Assembly: GCF_046119375.1 (NCBI RefSeq)
Contig: NW_027362971.1
Coordinates: 2,108,001 to 2,172,000 of the forward strand
From: Phyllobates terribilis
Lineage: Eukaryota
Direction: 5' to 3'
DNA: 64,000 nt
The notes beneath the pieces were generated by a model. The model did not search any database. It saw only the letters and a program-made list of their open reading frames with translations, and was not told the origin of the DNA. Below, piece after piece: positions 37,357 to 51,433 of this stretch (positions are counted from its first letter, which is position 1; every line of letters begins with the position of its first letter). The position numbers and the translations under genes are program-made.

Positions 37357-37512
37357 CATTATGAAAAAAACTTTTACAGTGAATGTCTAAATAAGTCCAA
37401 AATTCTGCGCTGATTTAAGAAGTTGTCCACTACTTGGACAACTCCTTGTCATCTCCCACACTTGGCCCCGATAAAATAAAAAGGCTTATACTCCCCACCC
37501 GTACCGGCGCCC

Positions 37513-39192
37513 TTCCCCCCGGAGTCGGCGGTCGCCCTCCCCCCCCCCCCCCCCCCGGAGTCGGCGGTCGGTCGCCCTCCCTCCCCATCCCCCCCCCCCC
37601 CGGAGTCGGCGGTCGCCCTCCCTCCCCATCCCCCCCCCCCCCCCCGGAGTCGGCGGTCGCCCTCCCTCCCCATCCCCCCCCTCCGGAGTCGGCGGTCGCC
37701 CTCCCTCTCCCCCCCCCCCCCCGGAGTCGGCGGTCGCCCTCCCTCTCCCCCCCCCCCCCCCGGAGTCGGCGGTCGCCCTCCCTCTCCCCCCCCCCCCCCC
37801 GGAGTCGGCGGTCGCCCTCCCTCTCCCCCCCCCCCCCCCGGAGTCGGCGGTCGCCCTCTCCCTCCCCCCCCCCCCCGGAGTCGGCGGTCGCCCTCCCTCC
37901 CCCCCCCCCCCCGGAGTCGGCGGTCGCCCTCCCTCCCCCCCCCCCCCCGGAGTCGGCGGTCGCCCTCCCTCCCTCCCCCCCCCCCCCCCGGAGTCGGCGG
38001 TCGCCCTCCCTCCCCCCCCCCCCCCCGGAGTCGGCGGTCGCCCTCCCTCCCTCCCCCCCCCCCCCGGAGTCGGCGGTCGCCCTCCCTCCCTCCCTCCCCC
38101 CCCCCCCCGGAGTCGGCGGTCGCCCTCCCTCCCTCCCTCCCCCCCCGGAGTCGGCGGTCGCCCTCCCTCCCCCCCCCCCCCGGAGTCGGCGGTCGCCCTC
38201 CCTCCCTCCCTCCCCCCCCCCCGGAGTCGGCGGTCGCCCTCCCTCCCCCCCCCCCCCCCCCCGGAGTCGGCGGTCGCCCTCCCTCCCTCCCTCCCCCCCC
38301 CCCCCCCGGAGTCGGCGGTCGCCCTCCCTCCCTCCCTCCCTCCCCCCCCCCCGGAGTCGGCGGTCTCCCTCCCTCCCCCCCCCCGGAGTCGGCGGTCGCC
38401 CTCCCTCCCTCCCCCCCCCGGAGTCGGCGGTCGCCCTCCCTCCCTCCCCCCCCCCCCCGGAGTCGGCGGTCGCCCTCCCTCCCTCCCTCCCCCCCCGGAG
38501 TCGGCGGTCGCCCTCCCTCCCTCCCTCCCCCCCCCCCCCCCGGAGTCGGCGGTCGCCCTCCCTCCCTCCCTCCCTCCCTCCCCCCCCCCCTCCCTCCCTC
38601 CCCCCCCCCCCCCCCCGGAGTCGGCGGTCGCCCTCCCTCCCTCCCTCCCCCCCCCCCCCCCCGGAGTCGGCGGTCGCCCTCCCTCCCTCCCTCCCTCCCC
38701 CCCCCCCCCCCCGGAGTCGGCGGTCGCCCTCCCTCCCTCCCTCCCTCCCTCCCTCCCCCCCCCCCGGAGTCGGCGGTCGCCCTCCCTCCCTCCCTCCCTC
38801 CCTCCCTCCCCCCCCCCCGGAGTCGGCGGTCGCCCTCCCTCCCTCCCCCCCCCCCCCCCCTGGAGTCGGCGGTCGCCCTCCCTCCCCCCCTGCCTGGAGT
38901 CGGCGGTCGCCCTCCCTCCCCCCCCCCCCCCCCCAGAGTCGGCGGTCGCCCTCCCTCCCCCCCCCCCCCAGAGTCGGCGGTCGCCCTCCCTCCCCCCCCC
39001 CCCCCCAGAGTCGGCGGTCGCCCTCCCTCCCCCCCCCCCCCCGGAGTCGGCGGTCGCCCTCCCTCCCCCCCCGGAGTCGGCGGTCACCCTCCCCCCCCCC
39101 CCCCCCCCCCCCGGAGTCGGCGGTCACCCTCCCTCCCCCCCCCCCCCCCCGGAGTCGGCGGTCGCCCTCCCTCCCCCCCCGGAGTCGGCGGT
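37513..39192 (-). repeat. Extremely G/C-skewed VNTR, ~40 units of GGGAGGGCGACCGCCGACTCCGG(G)n
   Basis: Invariant core GGAGTCGGCGGTCGCCCT on +, separated by variable (CCCT)n and poly-C runs. Confidence 0.95.
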
Positions 39193-41562
39193 CGGCCAAA
39201 GCATTCCCTACTGCTAGGGGAGTTTGTTCCCGAGTGTGTGCGGACACTTTGACTATGGCTGCCCTTCGGGGAAGGGTGAGTGCTGTGAGTAGCTGCTCTA
39301 CCGCTTGCGCATTCCTTATAGGTTTGCCAGCAGAGGTCAAGAAATAATGGCTTCGCCAAATGGCGCCAACGTCATGTGCAACACCATAAGCGTATTGCGA
39401 GTCAGAAAATACATTAATTTCTTTACCTTTTCCCAGATTACACGCTGCAGCGAGTGCTTTAAGCTCTGCCTCTTGCCCAGAGCAGCTGGAGGGGAGTGGT
39501 TCTTGTATCACTGCCTTACCATTGTGGACTACTGCATACCCGGTGATGAATCATCCTTGTTCACTGTCCCAAGCTCTGGAACCATCTACAAAATACTCAG
39601 CAGAGGGGTTAATGAGTGGTACATCATCAGTAATATTTGCCAAGCTCTTTATTTCAGCTTCCATCAATGCCTGACAGTCATGTTCATGTGCCATATCAAA
39701 CTGAGCTTCCTCATCTGCTAATTTGAAAAACAGGGGCAAATCTTGGCTCATGGTCTCTCCCTTTTCCCCATCCTGATACTTTCCTCTCTTTTCTAAATCC
39801 ACTGGTGGTAGTGTAGCTGGATTTAGAACATTACAGCGTTTGATAGTTATAAGGGGAGGTGTAAGGAGTAAGACTTCATATTTTGTCAACCTATGTCCTC
39901 TGTCTTTTTAACAAGTTCTGAAGCAGCTGACACAGCTCTAACACAAGTAGGAGAACCCATAATGACTGGATCAAGGGTTACAGAGTAATATCCTAGAGGG
40001 CGCTGCCTACCACCATGTTCTTGGGTAAGGACACCAGATGCATGTCCAGCCTGTTCGTGGCAGTACAAAGTAAAAAACTTGTCAGAATTCGGTATACCTA
40101 GAGCTGGTGAGGTAGAAAGTGAGCTTGAGCAAGTGAAATGCATCAATAGCCTCAGAATTAATGGTGAAAGGCTCAGTTTTGAGGCACTGAAACAATGGGG
40201 CTATAATACTAGAGGCATTTCGTATCCAGAGACGGCAGTACTGGACTAGGCCCAAGAATGCCAGAAGGGACTTGGTAGATCTTTGAAGGGGTATTTTTAG
40301 TATAGCCTCAATCCTCCCTGGGCTGAGATGCTTAATGCCTGGAGACAGGCAATGCCCAAGGAAAGTGACTGTGGACTTGCACAATTGGAGTTTATCTTTT
40401 GAAGCTTTGTACCCATTTTCTGCTAAGAATATCAGCAGAGATTGAGATTCATTGTGGCATATCTGGTCAGTGGTGCAGCAAAGGAGAAGGTCATCCACAT
40501 ATTGTAAGAGTATGGTGGATGAATCAAAGGGGCACCAGTTATAGAGTACAGTCTTTAGGGATATGGAAAATAAAGAAGGGGAGTTAGCAGCTCCCTGAGG
40601 AAGGACTGCCCATGCATACTGGGCACCTCTGTGGGTGAAGGCAAAATAAGAGGTACACTCCGTGGACAAGAAGACAGAGAAAAAAGCATTGGCCAGATCA
40701 ATCACTGTGAAACAGGTGGCTGTGGAGGGGACCTGATTCAGGAGAGTATGGGGGTTAGGTACAAGTGGAGTATCCACTATAGTTACTGGATTAACTGCGC
40801 TAAGATCATGTACCATACGATAGGCTACTGGCTGTCCAGGTAGGGTTTTCTTTTTGACTGGGTACAGGGGAGTGTTAAATGGGGAGGTTATAGGAATAAC
40901 TAGACCTCTTAACAAAAGCTTATGGACATTCTCGTGTATTGCTGCATCCTGAGCAGCACTTAAAGGATACTGCTTTATACAGGGGGGTTGGGCACCTGGT
41001 TTAAGTTTTACAGTCACCGGAGGGATGGGTAGTTTTCCCACATCAAGTTTGCTAAATGCCCACAATTGACTGGGTATATCCTCAAGCCAAACAGGATGGG
41101 AATGAGGTTTAGAGTCTGTATTGTTTAGAACTGTGGGAATTGTTAGGGATAGAAGACTACACAATGTGTCATCATCCAAGGGGGTGGTCATCTTGGGGCC
41201 ATTTAGAGTGAATTCTATGCAGGCCCCAATTTTCTGCAACACATCTGTTCCTAACAAATTAAAAGGCACATCAGGGGAAACTAAAACCTGGGTTACAATT
41301 GAAATCGAGTCATGCAAATTTATCTGGAGAGGATGAGTCATTTGTAATTTAGTAAGTCGTCCCTCTACCCCTTCACAAGCCACATTGTCGGGGGGGACAA
41401 AATGTCCTCTGGAACATGTTCTTGCATTAATACTGTACGGGCTGCTCCAGTGTCTACCATGAATGAAATAGTTAGTCCCTCCCTCAGGGACACGGGGACA
41501 GTGAATGTGGGTCCCTGGGGGGTGACAATGAGGCAGAAGGAGACCTCTGGATTGCCAGTTTC
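39186..41562 (-). pseudogene. ERV pro-pol (protease, RT, tether, RNase H), frameshifted and truncated before integrase
   Basis: FMVDTGAARTV (protease), PFNTPLYPVKK, PNPHTLL, DLANAFFS, LPQG and YVDDLLL (RT). RNase H motifs FVDGS, AELKA, FSDSQY and GNALAD. Class I, epsilon/gamma-like by motif. Confidence 0.92.
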
Positions 41563-42886
41563 CTATGGATGGGGCTGGGCAGTGGCTGTTGATTTTGCAG
41601 GACATTTGATGGATAGGTGTCCTTTTTGCTGGCAAGACCAACATTCTACATTGCTGTAATCTCTATTTCCTCCTTGGTGGTTACTTCCTCCTCTCCCTCC
41701 CCATCTTCCCTTCCTGGGTTGCACAGGAGCCAAGTTAACCCTTTTCTTTGACATGCTTTCTAGTTCAGCACCTCGGGCTATTTCCTTTAAATCAACACAT
41801 TGCATATTGCGCCACTCTAGGCGACTAGCGTGTACTGCACTCTTAACCTTAGGTTTAAGACCATTCATAAAACACTGCAACAATAATCTGTGATCCTTAT
41901 CATCATTATGCTCATATCCAAAATCCAACCATGTTTGTTCTAATACAGAGGCATATTCTGAGACTGACTGAGCCTTATCCTGTACTACAGTTTGTAACAG
42001 GTCTTGTTTTTTATCCTGCTCTGCCCGTGCCCAGTTTTGCATCCTTTGTATAAACACCCGACCCGACTCTGATGTATTTTTAATGGCTGGTTCCTGGCCT
42101 GGCAGCATCTGAGTAATTTCCATAGGTAAGGGGTCACTGCATTTCTGCAGAATGACAGAAACTAGATCATCCCATGTGGCCCGATATGCCTCCTGAACAC
42201 CCTGGAGGTGCATTCTAAATGCTAAGTTTTTTTTTTCGGGTATCTGGGAGCTGTGTAGCGAGGGCAATAAGTTCACTGGGGGACCAAGGCCGATATGTTT
42301 CTATTGGCCATACTTGGGGGGGGATTGTGTACCTGAACATTATCAACCATCCTAGGAGGTTGAAACTGTACAGGACTAGTGGTCCTCATAGGGAACAGAG
42401 GCACCCTGGGTGTTGTCCCTGGGTGTGAAGACCCACAGGACCTGCAACAATTAACCCCAGGGGGATTCTGATGACCACAATGTCTGCAAGTCCATGCCAT
42501 TGACCCAGCATAAGGCGGGGGTGCAGAATTTACATCAGGTAGAGACTACAGGGGTTTGAGAGTATTTCAAACTATCATAGATTACATAGACAGTTCCATG
42601 CCTGGTTTCCTCTGATTTATGTTCACTCATTGAGAGACGTTTTGCTACTTCTAACCACATCCTAGCCTGCTCTAGTTTGTTTTTATCTTTCAACCATCCT
42701 TCCCAAGATATATTTCTCCCATTCCTTCTCCTCCAAATTTCCCCACTTTCCCATACCAAATTTCCTCAATATTATTTCACATCCCTCAACTGCTTCTTTC
42801 CCTTTCAGTCTCTACACTATCTCACATGCTGGAACTGGGGCCAGGCCCTTTAGGTTAGTCAATTCCTTACTGTTGCTGGTCCCCAT
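41563..42886 (-). pseudogene. ERV gag (MA - PPPY - RanBP2-type ZnF - CA - NC) with several frameshifts and stops
   Basis: ATG at 42886 gives MGTSNS (myristoylation motif MGxxxS). SAPPPY at 42527-42510. WTCRHCGHQNPPGVNCCRSC at 42494-42435. Capsid-like region with MHR-like CFMNGLKPKVK. One knuckle CWSCQQKGHLSIKC. Amber stop at 41565-41563. Confidence 0.88.
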
Positions 42887-43966
42887 GACTGCAACCACTG
42901 TGCCAGAGTTACCGCAGAACTCTCTTCAGCACACCTAGAGCCTATCAGACTCTAAATTTGATCCCGTCCCAGTCTCCTCTGATCCTCCAAGACGGATCTG
43001 ATCCTGTCCCAGTCTCCTCTGAGCCTCGAAAGACAGATCTTTAAGGAAGTACTAACACAGATTTTCCAGCCCTGTGAGCTAGGGAGATTCTTACACACAA
43101 CCAAACAAATAACAATACCAAGCCTACTGCTCCACCTACTATTGCAATTATTTCTGCATGATCATATAACATTTCCTAGTTCAAAGGTTTTCCTTCTACA
43201 CCTTGTAGAGGCACTGCGTGACAATTATATCTGCAATTGGTGTTACTTTTTATACTATATGTTTCCCAGTCTGGGTATACAGGCTAAGCAAGAACTTCAG
43301 CTACTATGATTTTCCCTCTCTTGAGCTTACACAAAAACAGAACACAGACACTGAGGACAACGATTCTGATTAATCAAAAATGACTTAACACTAAGTCAAT
43401 CATTCAATGCACACTGCACAATCGCTGATATTAATCCCCCTGCTGTACTCGGGCTAAAAACTGCATTCAGTTACCCCTTTCTTGAGGGTGCCCTTATCAA
43501 TTTACAGGGGAATTCAATACCCTCAGAGTACTACCTTACCGTGAAGGATTCCTCTGTTATAGGCAATCACACTTCCCTGATCCTCTTACAGACCGATTTT
43601 CCTCTCCACCACATGTGAAGGAACACACCTAACGGGATCCCTTATCAAGCAGAGACCGTAGTCCCTTATTGGTCAATCAAAAATCATTCAGTCCCATATT
43701 CAAGGATCCTCATAGTTTACAATATCATCCCAGACATTTATGACATAGACAAAACAAACAACATAAAACAATCCTCTGACTCCTGAAATATACAGAAGAA
43801 CTGCAGAGGTGCCTAATCCCGACACGCTGGGCAAGGTTGGTTACTCGTCACTTCATTCAATTATCATTCAACCGTCATTCAATTGTCAATCATACATCTA
43901 AAAACCACATTGAAACATATAAGACAACAAATTCAATCATTGGCAAGGGTTCAAAAATGATTGTCT

Positions 43967-44446
43967 TGTTACGACCACCAATTACCCGTCCTGGAGCCCT
44001 CTAGGTAGTACTGAATTAGTAAAATATACAAAAAATGCCATCTGTTGTATACAAGAAAAGGTGGGCAACCATCTGTTTTACAGATGCTTGTCCACATGCA
44101 TGCTGAAAATAAAGTATATTTATTCAGTAATGCACAATAAAAAACACATAAGAATTCAGACAAAGAGGTAGTCAGATAATAAAGTGCTTACAGGTCAGGT
44201 GAATATATATGATATGTTTATAATAAATCCATAGATTAATATAATTGCACGTTGCCCCACTCCAAAAAATAGAAAGTACAAAAGAGTGAGCTAGGATAGA
44301 AATCCCAAAATAAGCACGTGTATCATAGTCCCACTGGCTGCTGTATGGGTGAAGATGGGGGTAAAACACTCTTATTAGTATAAAAGCTCTGTGACCCACT
44401 CCACCCACTAGAAATCATGTTATCCTTGCGAGATAGTTACCTGACA
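43967..44446 (-). mobile_element. Putative ERV 5' LTR; inner boundary uncertain (43967 or ~43614)
   Basis: Minus strand TGTCAG... to ...GTCGTAACA, with TATAAA at 44222-44217 and AATAAA at 44124-44119. Leader splice donor CACG|GTAAGG at 43540/43539. No second LTR is available for confirmation. Confidence 0.45.
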
Positions 44447-48066: not shown

Positions 48067-51000
48067 TTATTCTGGAAGAGGACTGGCAAATTCATGAGAG
48101 ATCCAGGCCTTGTTCATTTTGAGAAAAGCCGGTCAACGTTATCGGAGGATTGTCGCATGCGACGGTCTGTTAGTACACTACCTGCGGCACTAAAGACGCG
48201 TTCCGATAATACACTAGCAGCAGGGCAAGCTAGCACCTCCAATGCATACTGACTAAGCTCTGGCCATGTATCCAGCTTACAGACCCAAAACTTGAAGGGA
48301 GAAGAGAAGTCTGGGAGTACACTGAGAGAGCAAGACATGTAGTCTGTCACCATCTGACGGAAGCGTTGCCTCCTGCTGACTGGAGCCGTCTGTGATGGTG
48401 TAGACATTTGTGGCGGTGGGGCCCCAAAACTTTGCCTCATTTCGGCCATACTGGTCTTGCCTTGCGCTGAGGCGCTGCTTCTGCTCCCTCTTTGTGCAGA
48501 GCTTCCTCCACTGCCTCGACGCACTGAGCTGCTTTGTAAAGCACTAGCAGCACTGCTCTCGGTTGGAATGGAGAACATGATGGAATGCACCAGTGCGTCT
48601 TGGTACTCCCGCATTTTACGCTCCCGGTTCAATGGTGTTATGAGGCTTTGTAAGTTGTCCCGGTAGCGAGGATCTAGGAGGGTGGACACCCAATAATCAG
48701 CCGTGTTGAGAATGTGGGCGATGCCGCGGTCGTTTCTCAGGCACTGCAGCATTAAATCAACCATGTGCTGCAGACTGCCAACTGGCCAAGAAACGCTGTC
48801 CCCTGCTTGAGGCGTGATCTCTGCCTGCTCTGCATCACCCCACCCTCGCTCTAGATACTGACTACTAGAGCATTGTGTACCTCCCTCCTCTGGACAGATG
48901 TCTTCCTCCTCCATTGACTCCTCCTCATCCTCCTCACAAAGTGTCCCCTGCCTAGGCCTTTGTGAGGAACCATGTTGCGCAGACTGTAGAGAAGCAGATG
49001 GCATTTGTGACTCCTCATCCTCCACCTCTTCCAAAACCTTGTCCCTTAGTTTTTGCAGTGTTTTTTCAAGCAGGCAGATAAGGGGGATAGTCATGCTGTC
49101 TAGTGCATCATCTGCACTCGCCATCCGCGTGGAATAATCGAAGGCACGCAAAACGTGGCAAATGTCCTTCATAGAGGCCCACTCAGTGGTGGTGAAGTGT
49201 GAACGGCGCGCACTGCGACTTGTTTGCGCCTGCTGCAGCTGGTACTCCATTACTGCTGCCTGCTGCTCACACAACCTCTCCAACATATGTAACGTTGAAT
49301 TCCACCTGGTGGGTAGGTCACATATGATGCGATGTTCCGGAAGACGTAATCGGCGCTGCAGAGCTGCAATGCGTGATCTTGCGTTGCTGGAACGCCGCAA
49401 GTGAGCGCACTCTATGCGGACCTTGTGAAGCAGTGCATCAAGATCCGGATAGTCCCTCAAAAAACTCTGCACGACCAAGTTGAGCACATGTGCCAGACAT
49501 AGGATGTGAGTGAGGTTGCCTAGGCCCAGAGCTGCCACCAGATTTCGGCCATTGTCACACACTACCATGCCTGGCTGGAGATTCGCTGGCACAAACCACA
49601 CGTCGCTCTGCTGCTTGATGGCATTCCAGAGCTCCTGCGCTGTGTGGCTTCGATTCCCCAAAGAAATTAATTTTAATACGGCCTGTTGACGTTTGGCCAC
49701 GGCTGTGCTCATATCGGTCATCATAACAGGTAACCCGTTCACGGGTCGATGTGGAGGTAGACCGTGACGGCTCCTGCAGCGCTGATTCAGAGGAACTGGA
49801 GTATGAGGAGGAGTCAATGTGTACAGACTGGATTCCTGCAATCCTAGGAGTTGGCAGAACACGGACAGCGCCACTCTCAAGATCTGTACCCGGCTCCACA
49901 ACATTTACCCAATGGGCAATGAGGGAAAGGTATCGTCCCTGTCCATGCTTACTGGTCCGCGCATCGGTGGACCTTGCTACTGACGGCGTTTTGTAGCGCA
50001 TGTTTAATTTTTCCCTCCACATGATGTTGCAGGGCAGGGACGGCTTGCCTGCTGAAATAAAAGCGGCTGGGCATGTTGTATTGTGGGACTGCCAATGCCA
50101 TAAAGTTACGGAAGGTGTCAGTCTCCACCAGCCTGAATGATAGCATTTCAAGGGCCAGTAGTTTAGCAATGCCAGCATTCAGAGCCTGTGCTCGGGGGTG
50201 GTTTGCCGAGTATGGGCGCCTTTTCTCCCATGCCTGTGCTAACGATGGCTGTAGACTGGCCTGGGAGTGTGAGGATGACTGGGAAAGTGGTGCTGTGGGT
50301 GGAATTACACTGTGTCTCTGTACAACAGTGCCAGAGATTCTTCCATGGCGATCCTGTGAGGAAGCCGAACCAGCTGTGTGTGAGCTGGAGGAAGAGGCTA
50401 CAACACGAGCTGAAGAGGTGGTAGCTGGCGCTGTAGGTTGGCCTAGGTCTTCAGTGTGTTTTTGTAACTCCACCACGTGCTTGGTCCACACATGTTTCCA
50501 CATATTTGTGGTATTGAGGTTGCTGACACTTTTCCCTCTTTTCACCTTCTGATTACACAGCTTGCATTTGACAAAGCAAATGTCATCTGCAACTGTGTCA
50601 AAAAAGGACCAGGCACTGCAAGTCTTGGGAGTGCCCGCTTTGGATTTTGGAAGAGCCATGCTCCTACTGGGTGCCGAAGTGGAGGCTACAGGCAACCAAG
50701 TCAGCCCCCTCCCTCTCCCTCCTTTTTGGGCCATTCGGGGAATCTCTTCCTCAGAGCTGCTCCCACCACCTTCCTGTCCCTCACGCCATGATGGGTCAAG
50801 GACCTCATCATCTACACCACCCTCTTCAAACAACTGCTTCTCCTGGGTAGTCTCGACAGCACAGTACGCACCAGAAAGTGGCACCTGAGTCTCATCAGAT
50901 GCGTACTGAGGTGAGCTGCTGACCATAGGCACTGGCCCACCCGCCTCTTCAGATTCAGAGAGACAAAACGGTTGCGCATCACTGCATACTACCTCTTCTT

Positions 51001-51433
51001 CAAATTCTCGAATTCTGCTTGGCTGGCCCCCTCTTTCCAAGCCAAGAGATTCAGAGAACAGAAGTAGAGATGGCTCCTGTCCAGGGCTCTCTGACTGCCT
51101 GGGCAATTTGGCAGGTGGTGAAGAGACAGATGGGTGCTATTCAGTGCTCAGGACCTGAGAGGATCTGGAACTAATTGAAGTCGATGCGTTAGCTGCCATC
51201 CATCCGACAACGGCTTCAATTTGGTCCTCCCGCAGCAGTGGGGTATGGCTAGCTCCTACAAAGCTGCGCATAAAGGACTGTTCCCTGGTAAAACTGGGGG
51301 ATGCTGAGTCACTGGTACCCGCAGCAGACACAGAATCCCCACGTCCTCTCCCTGCAGGCACAGAATCCTCACGTCCTCTCCCTGCAGAAACTCCACGCCC
51401 ACGACCACATGCCTTACTCCCTGCCTTCTTCAT
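48067..51433 (-). pseudogene. hAT transposase (ZBED-like: BED finger, DDE, hATC dimerisation domain), disrupted
   Basis: BED finger WSFF..C..C..TTNMWKHVWTKH, TDA(R/W)TS, CDNGRN, CLAHVLNLVV, CDLPTRWNST and PAASVLSERVFSAAG. In-frame stop at 51139-51137 and frameshifts near 49970, 49720 and 48125. Confidence 0.92.

Follow-up and report, generated by a model that had tools for sequence, protein, structure and literature searches.

In MLV, the p12 segment of Gag lies between matrix and capsid and bears the late domain (PMC6116279); its N-terminal part binds capsid and its C-terminal part nucleosomes (PMC6116279, PMC12336834). The available portions of these two reviews do not describe how epsilon-like retroviruses reach host chromatin. 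RanBP2-type zinc fingers are already known in the Gag of one frog ERV family, AnERV9 of Gastrophryne carolinensis: a 2024 preprint reports two of them in two sentences of text that give neither position nor function (bioRxiv 10.1101/2024.07.05.601823). Like the element described here, AnERV9 is an anuran ERV with an epsilon-class Pol, a single CCHC and RanBP2-type finger(s) in Gag. As compared from the preprint's running text, it differs in having two fingers and no myristoylation signal, against one finger and a Met-Gly start in our element, and a late domain is not stated. Titles and the openings of abstracts yielded no other paper on a finger in Gag. The RmERV/Xen1 anuran epsilon clade is described in PMC12690878, the accessible part of which mentions neither zinc nor RanBP. 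The deposited Gag of RmERV from the cane toad, Rhinella marina (AWS20966.1), resembles ours in its succession of matrix, PPPY, finger, capsid and one CCHC, and the two fingers are identical at 12 of 20 positions. It differs in having a macro domain that separates the finger from the capsid, and its CA-NC region is just 23% identical. A claim of first discovery was rejected because the AnERV9 preprint is earlier; with that report and the deposited RmERV layout, the novelty assumed in a first-pass annotation of this DNA is lower than supposed. Since the copy at hand is also a dead provirus, the element's capacity to surprise is limited. What is new is the wide occurrence of the finger among frog Gags, its constant position behind the late domain, an invariant proline and, in one lineage, an adjoining macro domain.

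The window, the whole 64,000-nucleotide stretch of Phyllobates terribilis DNA that was analysed, contains a class I (epsilon-like) provirus that is dead and whose gag is fragmented. The features are as follows, in window positions.

42560-42886, minus strand: matrix-like region with a Met-Gly start at 42886 and a stop and a frame break inside (tblastn of P0052, P0041 and P0006).
42276-42545, minus strand: open stretch with PPPY, finger and predicted capsid start, bounded on both sides by frame breaks (reading frames, tblastn).
42510-42521, minus strand: PPPY, a PPxY-type late-domain motif (sequence).
42435-42494, minus strand: Cys4 zinc finger of RanBP2 pattern, W-x-C-x2-C-x3-N-P-x5-C-x2-C (pattern, Pfam, shuffles, model).
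42387-42398, minus strand: L-F-P-M, predicted protease site leading to the putative N-terminal Pro of the capsid (alignment and P0009 model).
41563-42300, minus strand: open frame of capsid and nucleocapsid, ending in TAG (frames, phmmer, capsid model of a relative).
41602-41643, minus strand: single CCHC zinc knuckle of the nucleocapsid, apart from the finger (sequence, Pfam).
40082-41662, minus strand: piece with protease and reverse transcriptase, YVDD (Pfam RVT_1, E 3e-24).
39218-39550, minus strand: RNase H piece, where the element stops at a GC-rich tandem repeat (Pfam RNase_H, E 3e-14).

PPxY-type late domains have an established function, which is putative for the PPPY of the window. 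The class I (gamma/epsilon-like) assignment follows from an MLV-like reverse transcriptase with YVDD together with an MLV-like capsid. The nearest solved structures for both are those of MLV, for the capsid by way of a relative's model, and the best PDB matches of the reverse transcriptase piece favored gammaretroviral enzymes (E 1e-56) over that of foamy virus (1e-28). The CA-NC piece was homologous to RmERV Gag by phmmer, a comparison that concerns Gag and not Pol. In class I elements the gag stop is followed in frame by the start of pro (PMC13517186, as far as its available text goes); here the gag frame ends in TAG (41563-41565), an open frame follows, and pro is broken in the window copy. 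Further frame breaks fall before PPPY and within the start of the capsid. The tandem repeat, of ~38-nt units at 37449-39217, interrupts the provirus within RNase H. The search, which covered part of the window, showed no integrase, env or LTR pair, and past the repeat no integrase or env was seen. A TGG-starting stretch on the minus strand at 43963-43980 may be a primer binding site. An AATAAA lies ~140 nt upstream of this candidate, and the leader to the gag start would be ~1.1 kb.

The finger, WTCRHCGHQNPPGVNCCRSC (42435-42494, minus strand), fits W-x-C-x(2,4)-C-x3-N-x6-C-x2-C, the RanBP2-type pattern as cited in the accessible text of the ZC4H2 preprint. PPPY shares its frame and lies five residues ahead of its Trp. 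The first-pass annotation had placed such a finger directly after PPPY in a minus-strand gag frame, and this was borne out: in a six-frame scan WTCRHCGHQNPPGVNCCRSC was the sole match in the window, 300 block shuffles of the window produced none, and the analytic expectation was 4.6e-4 per window. The finger was also correctly set apart from the nucleocapsid knuckle, which the annotation had put at ~41590-41635. A Pfam scan, proposed at the same time, gave a divided answer. The window finger scored 15.5 bits against Zn_ribbon_RanBP, under the cut-off of 27, and scored higher against DZR (20.2 bits) and Zn_Ribbon_1 (18.8 bits), both under their own cut-offs. This low score and the interruption of the frame on both sides of the finger stretch are what a chance motif, or the by-product of another frame, would give. 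The shuffles argue against it, as does the finger standing in frame in 10 intact relatives; chance origin is thus refuted by the relatives and was rejected, its residual probability being negligible. The finger is almost certainly a real, conserved domain of Gag.

Because the window copy is broken, the question of frame was answered with these naturally intact relatives. A phmmer search with the CA-NC piece of the window gave 50 matches, so that relatives were chosen by their capsid and not by the finger. Twenty-three that matched best within or close to the CCHC knuckle were set aside and 27 were inspected; three cluster members were added, making 30. A matrix-like N-terminus was present in 13 of the 30, and 10 of these 13 (8 of 11 clusters) had, in a single open protein, C-x2-C-x3-N-P-x5-C-x2-C between their matrix and capsid. 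The 17 relatives lacking a matrix-like N-terminus all lacked the finger as well. The hosts named are Phyllobates, Ranitomeya, Anomaloglossus, Rhinoderma and Ascaphus; the deposited RmERV Gag is one of the 10. The three matrix-bearing exceptions comprise P0006 (Pelobates), in which PPPY occurs four times and the finger has decayed, keeping its spacing but losing two of its four Cys; P0030, in which a different Cys4 (C-x2-C-x13-C-x2-C) is placed before PPPY and PSAP instead of after; and P0014, with no finger. As the annotation had anticipated for a genuine domain, the four Cys and the Asn were invariant in all 11 alignment rows, as were the Pro of the finger and the predicted N-terminal capsid Pro of the L-F-P-M site. 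The fuller pattern with Trp, W-x-C-x(2,4)-C-x3-N-x6-C-x2-C, was found in the window and in all eight non-redundant relatives. The Pfam cut-off that the window copy missed was passed by two of the seven finger-bearing relatives scanned (P0009, 34.9 bits; P0041, 28.1 bits); the other five scored 15.8-25.4 bits, with Zn_Ribbon_1 scoring alike. In the window and seven of the 10 finger-bearing relatives, a PPxY precedes the first Cys by 5-18 residues; the other three have none within 30 residues before the finger. As judged from these sequences, the finger is widespread in this frog Gag group and its position fixed.

Structure prediction, which had also been suggested, supported the RanBP2/NZF assignment. 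The model of the window peptide reached pLDDT 88-90 over the finger and placed two orthogonal hairpins around the four Cys. It superposed on the TRABID, Nup153 and RanBP2 fingers with an rmsd of 0.3-0.6 A over 24-28 residues. A fold search with the finger gave no match with E < 0.001 (best Z 4.4) because the domain is so small. The finger is accordingly predicted by modelling to fold as a RanBP2-type, zinc-bound domain. In the model of the intact P0009, a helical matrix domain (weak match to MLV matrix 1mn8, Z 5.3) is followed by a disordered Pro-rich linker, the finger and, from residue 172, the capsid. The capsid model of a relative matched MLV capsid 6hwx (Foldseek E 5e-6), and the top match in a viral fold search was RmERV Gag. 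Residues 171-172 of P0009, at L-F-P-M, align with residue 1 of the MLV, HIV and RSV capsids, from which we infer a protease cut at this site. If the protease cuts there, directly behind the finger, the finger and PPPY would remain joined on a single small peptide. The finger thus stands after a proline-rich or PPxY stretch and before the predicted capsid N-terminus, which is the place of MLV p12; the p12-equivalent position proposed in the annotation holds for the intact relatives and the P0009 model. Predictions of a finger-capsid complex for P0009 scored 0.00 in two runs in which the controls were not folded, and so favor neither contact nor its absence.

The annotation had named ubiquitin, RNA and Ran as candidate ligands, and the signatures of all three were surveyed in nine non-redundant fingers. 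In NZF fingers that bind ubiquitin, the second Cys is followed by T-F/Y, the binding determinant, and the last Cys is preceded by a hydrophobic residue (PMC12805371, in its available part). T-F/Y was found at positions 13-14 in none of the nine fingers, and position 25 lacked a large hydrophobic residue. In the part of the ZC4H2 preprint at hand, a finger without the TF motif did not bind ubiquitin. By pattern and predicted fold the Gag finger resembles those of NPL4, TAB2, TRABID and Nup153/RanBP2, but it lacks the T-F/Y of the NZF fingers. Against these absences stand the nearby PPxY that precedes the finger in the window and seven relatives, the NPL4 NZF as the best PDB sequence match of the window peptide alone (E 0.005), and TRABID NZF1 as the top fold match, tied with Ran-binding fingers. 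A finger that binds ubiquitin or a ubiquitinated ESCRT partner, cooperating with the adjoining PPxY in budding, is on this evidence improbable, the more so as in three of the relatives with a finger the stretch just before it holds no PPxY.

Ran binding by such fingers is carried by Leu-Val or Leu-Leu after the second Cys, with Ala before the last. The Nup153 fingers surveyed have Leu-Leu or Leu-Val there, and the Gag finger differs from Nup153/RanBP2 in having no Leu-Val: position 13 was Leu in none of the nine fingers and Gly in seven. Fingers of Nup153 and RanBP2 are prominent among both the fold and the sequence matches, and V/L-A/S precedes the last Cys in four of nine fingers, as in Nup153 (Ala25 in two of nine). 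The fold scores, however, do not separate ligand classes. Binding of Ran-GDP or nuclear transport factors in the manner of Nup153/RanBP2, as an aid to nuclear entry, is the least probable of the functional readings.

RNA-binding members are defined by an aromatic residue at position 17, Asp before the Trp and Arg19/Arg20 (PMC6384913, available part). Neither the aromatic 17 nor the Asp occurred in any of the nine fingers. The earlier remark that the finger carries neither the TF nor the RNA-binding motif was therefore correct for the whole set. Position 17 was Pro in nine of nine, in place of the RNA-stacking aromatic residue. A profile of the nine fingers found the RBM10 finger as its best PDB match (34.0 bits, E 1.7e-7); the next matches reached 27.9 bits (a two-domain sum) and 26.9, with Nup153 and archaeal eL40 following RBM10. 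The RBM5/RBM10 fingers share C-G-x-Q-N and C-G-x-P with those of Gag and differ in the aromatic 17, the Asp before Trp and an Arg-Arg not kept in Gag. A diverged RBM5/RBM10-type finger could bind single-stranded RNA, of the viral genome or the host, and so complement the one CCHC of the window Gag. Consistent with this are the RBM10 match, Trp19 and Arg20 (each in three of nine), which echo FUS/EWS, and the N-P of archaeal eL40, itself a ribosomal protein. The invariant Pro17, the missing Asp and a net charge near zero (-1 to +3, with no conserved basic patch) speak against it, and we consider RNA binding unlikely, if less so than any other alternative. Canonical binding of ubiquitin, RNA or Ran was rejected, the signatures of all three being absent. 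The absence of the RNA and ubiquitin signatures from all nine fingers leaves a protein partner of another kind.

Conservation within the finger was compared with that of the capsid. Outside the six pattern residues, 3-6 of 14 finger positions were identical to the window, and CA-NC was 23-40% identical. The finger is no better kept there than the capsid, and hence no fixed binding surface stands out. This is what would be expected of a structural element (a folded spacer, a presenter of the protease site or a Gag-Gag contact) or of an innate-defence decoy acting with the macro domain, neither with a fixed ligand. Most of the kept positions do hold residues that serve the fold (W, C, N, P, G), and the linker collects accessory domains. 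A macro domain lies within Gag between finger and capsid in P0016, P0018, P0019 and P0053, that is, in RmERV and Ascaphus relatives; it follows the finger in P0018, P0019 and P0053. Pfam Macro gave E 1e-25 to 1e-27 in the three relatives scanned, and P0053 was assigned by alignment. Fish epsilon-like ERVs with macro domains are mentioned in the available text of PMC4977317. A macro domain is absent, however, from the majority of Gags that carry the finger, among them that of the window; Gln15 and Pro31 are each kept in eight of nine fingers as well, and a zinc finger is a costly spacer. We regard the structural or decoy explanation as doubtful.

The capsid tree (22 rows; six of the 27 relatives were left out for want of an anchor motif) placed finger-bearing Gags in four groups, with no settled order among them. 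Macro-bearing relatives grouped together (94/92). The deepest fork was weakly supported (58/42), so that neither a single origin nor an order of gain and loss can be claimed. The suggestion that the finger was captured found no firm support: the domain has only 20-25 residues and, although RBM10 is its best PDB match, N-P is found in archaeal eL40 and generic zinc ribbons too. An origin from a host gene is accordingly possible only. Of the annotation's interpretation as a whole, the conserved, in-frame RanBP2-type finger at the p12 place stood, the capture and the three ligands found no firm support, and the novelty proved lower than assumed.

The reading we tentatively prefer, at somewhat less than an even chance, is that the finger serves to dock a nuclear or chromatin protein of the host and is carried on a p12-like peptide between matrix and capsid; this reading ranks above RNA binding, the structural or decoy role, ubiquitin binding and Ran binding, in that order. 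The finger peptide resembles MLV p12 in lying between matrix and capsid together with a late domain. Protease cleavage behind the finger would free a small peptide bearing PPPY and finger. By position, the role of PPPY would be to bring in NEDD4-type ligases for budding, and that of the finger to stand in for the C-terminal chromatin-binding part of p12. The finger might then connect the incoming core with a host factor by a surface distinct from those known for ubiquitin, RNA and Ran. Its presence in 10 of 13 matrix-bearing relatives, the invariance of Cys, Asn and Pro and the p12-like placement in the P0009 model favor this docking role. Several points weigh against it. MLV p12 binds nucleosomes by a short C-terminal motif, no sequence likeness to it was shown, and the analogy is positional. 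MLV p12 is not known to have a Cys4 finger. The nucleosomal acidic patch is bound by p12 (PMC12336834, available part), but the finger has no conserved basic patch. The surface residues of the finger vary, three of 13 matrix-bearing relatives have no intact finger, and the closest solved structure by sequence is an RNA-binding finger, that of RBM10.

A more specific history, which we think unlikely as a whole, would have an RBM10-like host finger taken up long ago and retooled by Pro17. It would serve frog epsilon-like viruses as a p12 equivalent, a capsid-linked chromatin or nuclear tether, with the macro domain gained later in the RmERV lineage. If true, this would give the fold a new class of ligand and retroviruses a new way of nuclear targeting. 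A conserved, folded domain of 25-30 residues at the p12 position offers a small, expressible handle on the question of chromatin access. A RanBP2-type finger that bears none of the three known ligand signatures might bring a fourth to light, and the matrix-capsid linker looks like a slot for accessory domains, as the macro domain of one lineage illustrates.

Contigs of four sequencing runs showed a multi-copy family. It was multi-copy in organism A and present in the coded organisms B and C; none of the runs listed as holding it was of RNA. In the region of window positions 42330-42600, the contigs of other copies depart from the window copy at the break that lies upstream of PPPY. Among the contig variants of the 60-nt finger, none of the six listed substitution sites fell on the six pattern codons (P ~0.10, not significant), five of the six changed the residue, and the finger was broken in one contig. 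Word-index protein searches matched 0 of 796, 2 of 7999 and 1 of 2463 candidates, all of them already known. A scan of IMG/VR with P0052 gave no match; in the ESM Atlas, CA-NC led to generic Gag clusters only and matrix plus finger to no usable match. In P0013 and P0017, the gene models join a RING/B-box-like N-terminus (TRIM-like, by eye) to the capsid and nucleocapsid of the family, and these joins may be real fusions or gene-model artefacts. Elsewhere in the window, long open frames on the minus strand at 48114-51136 resemble, by eye, a hAT-type DNA transposase that carries a BED finger and is now broken.
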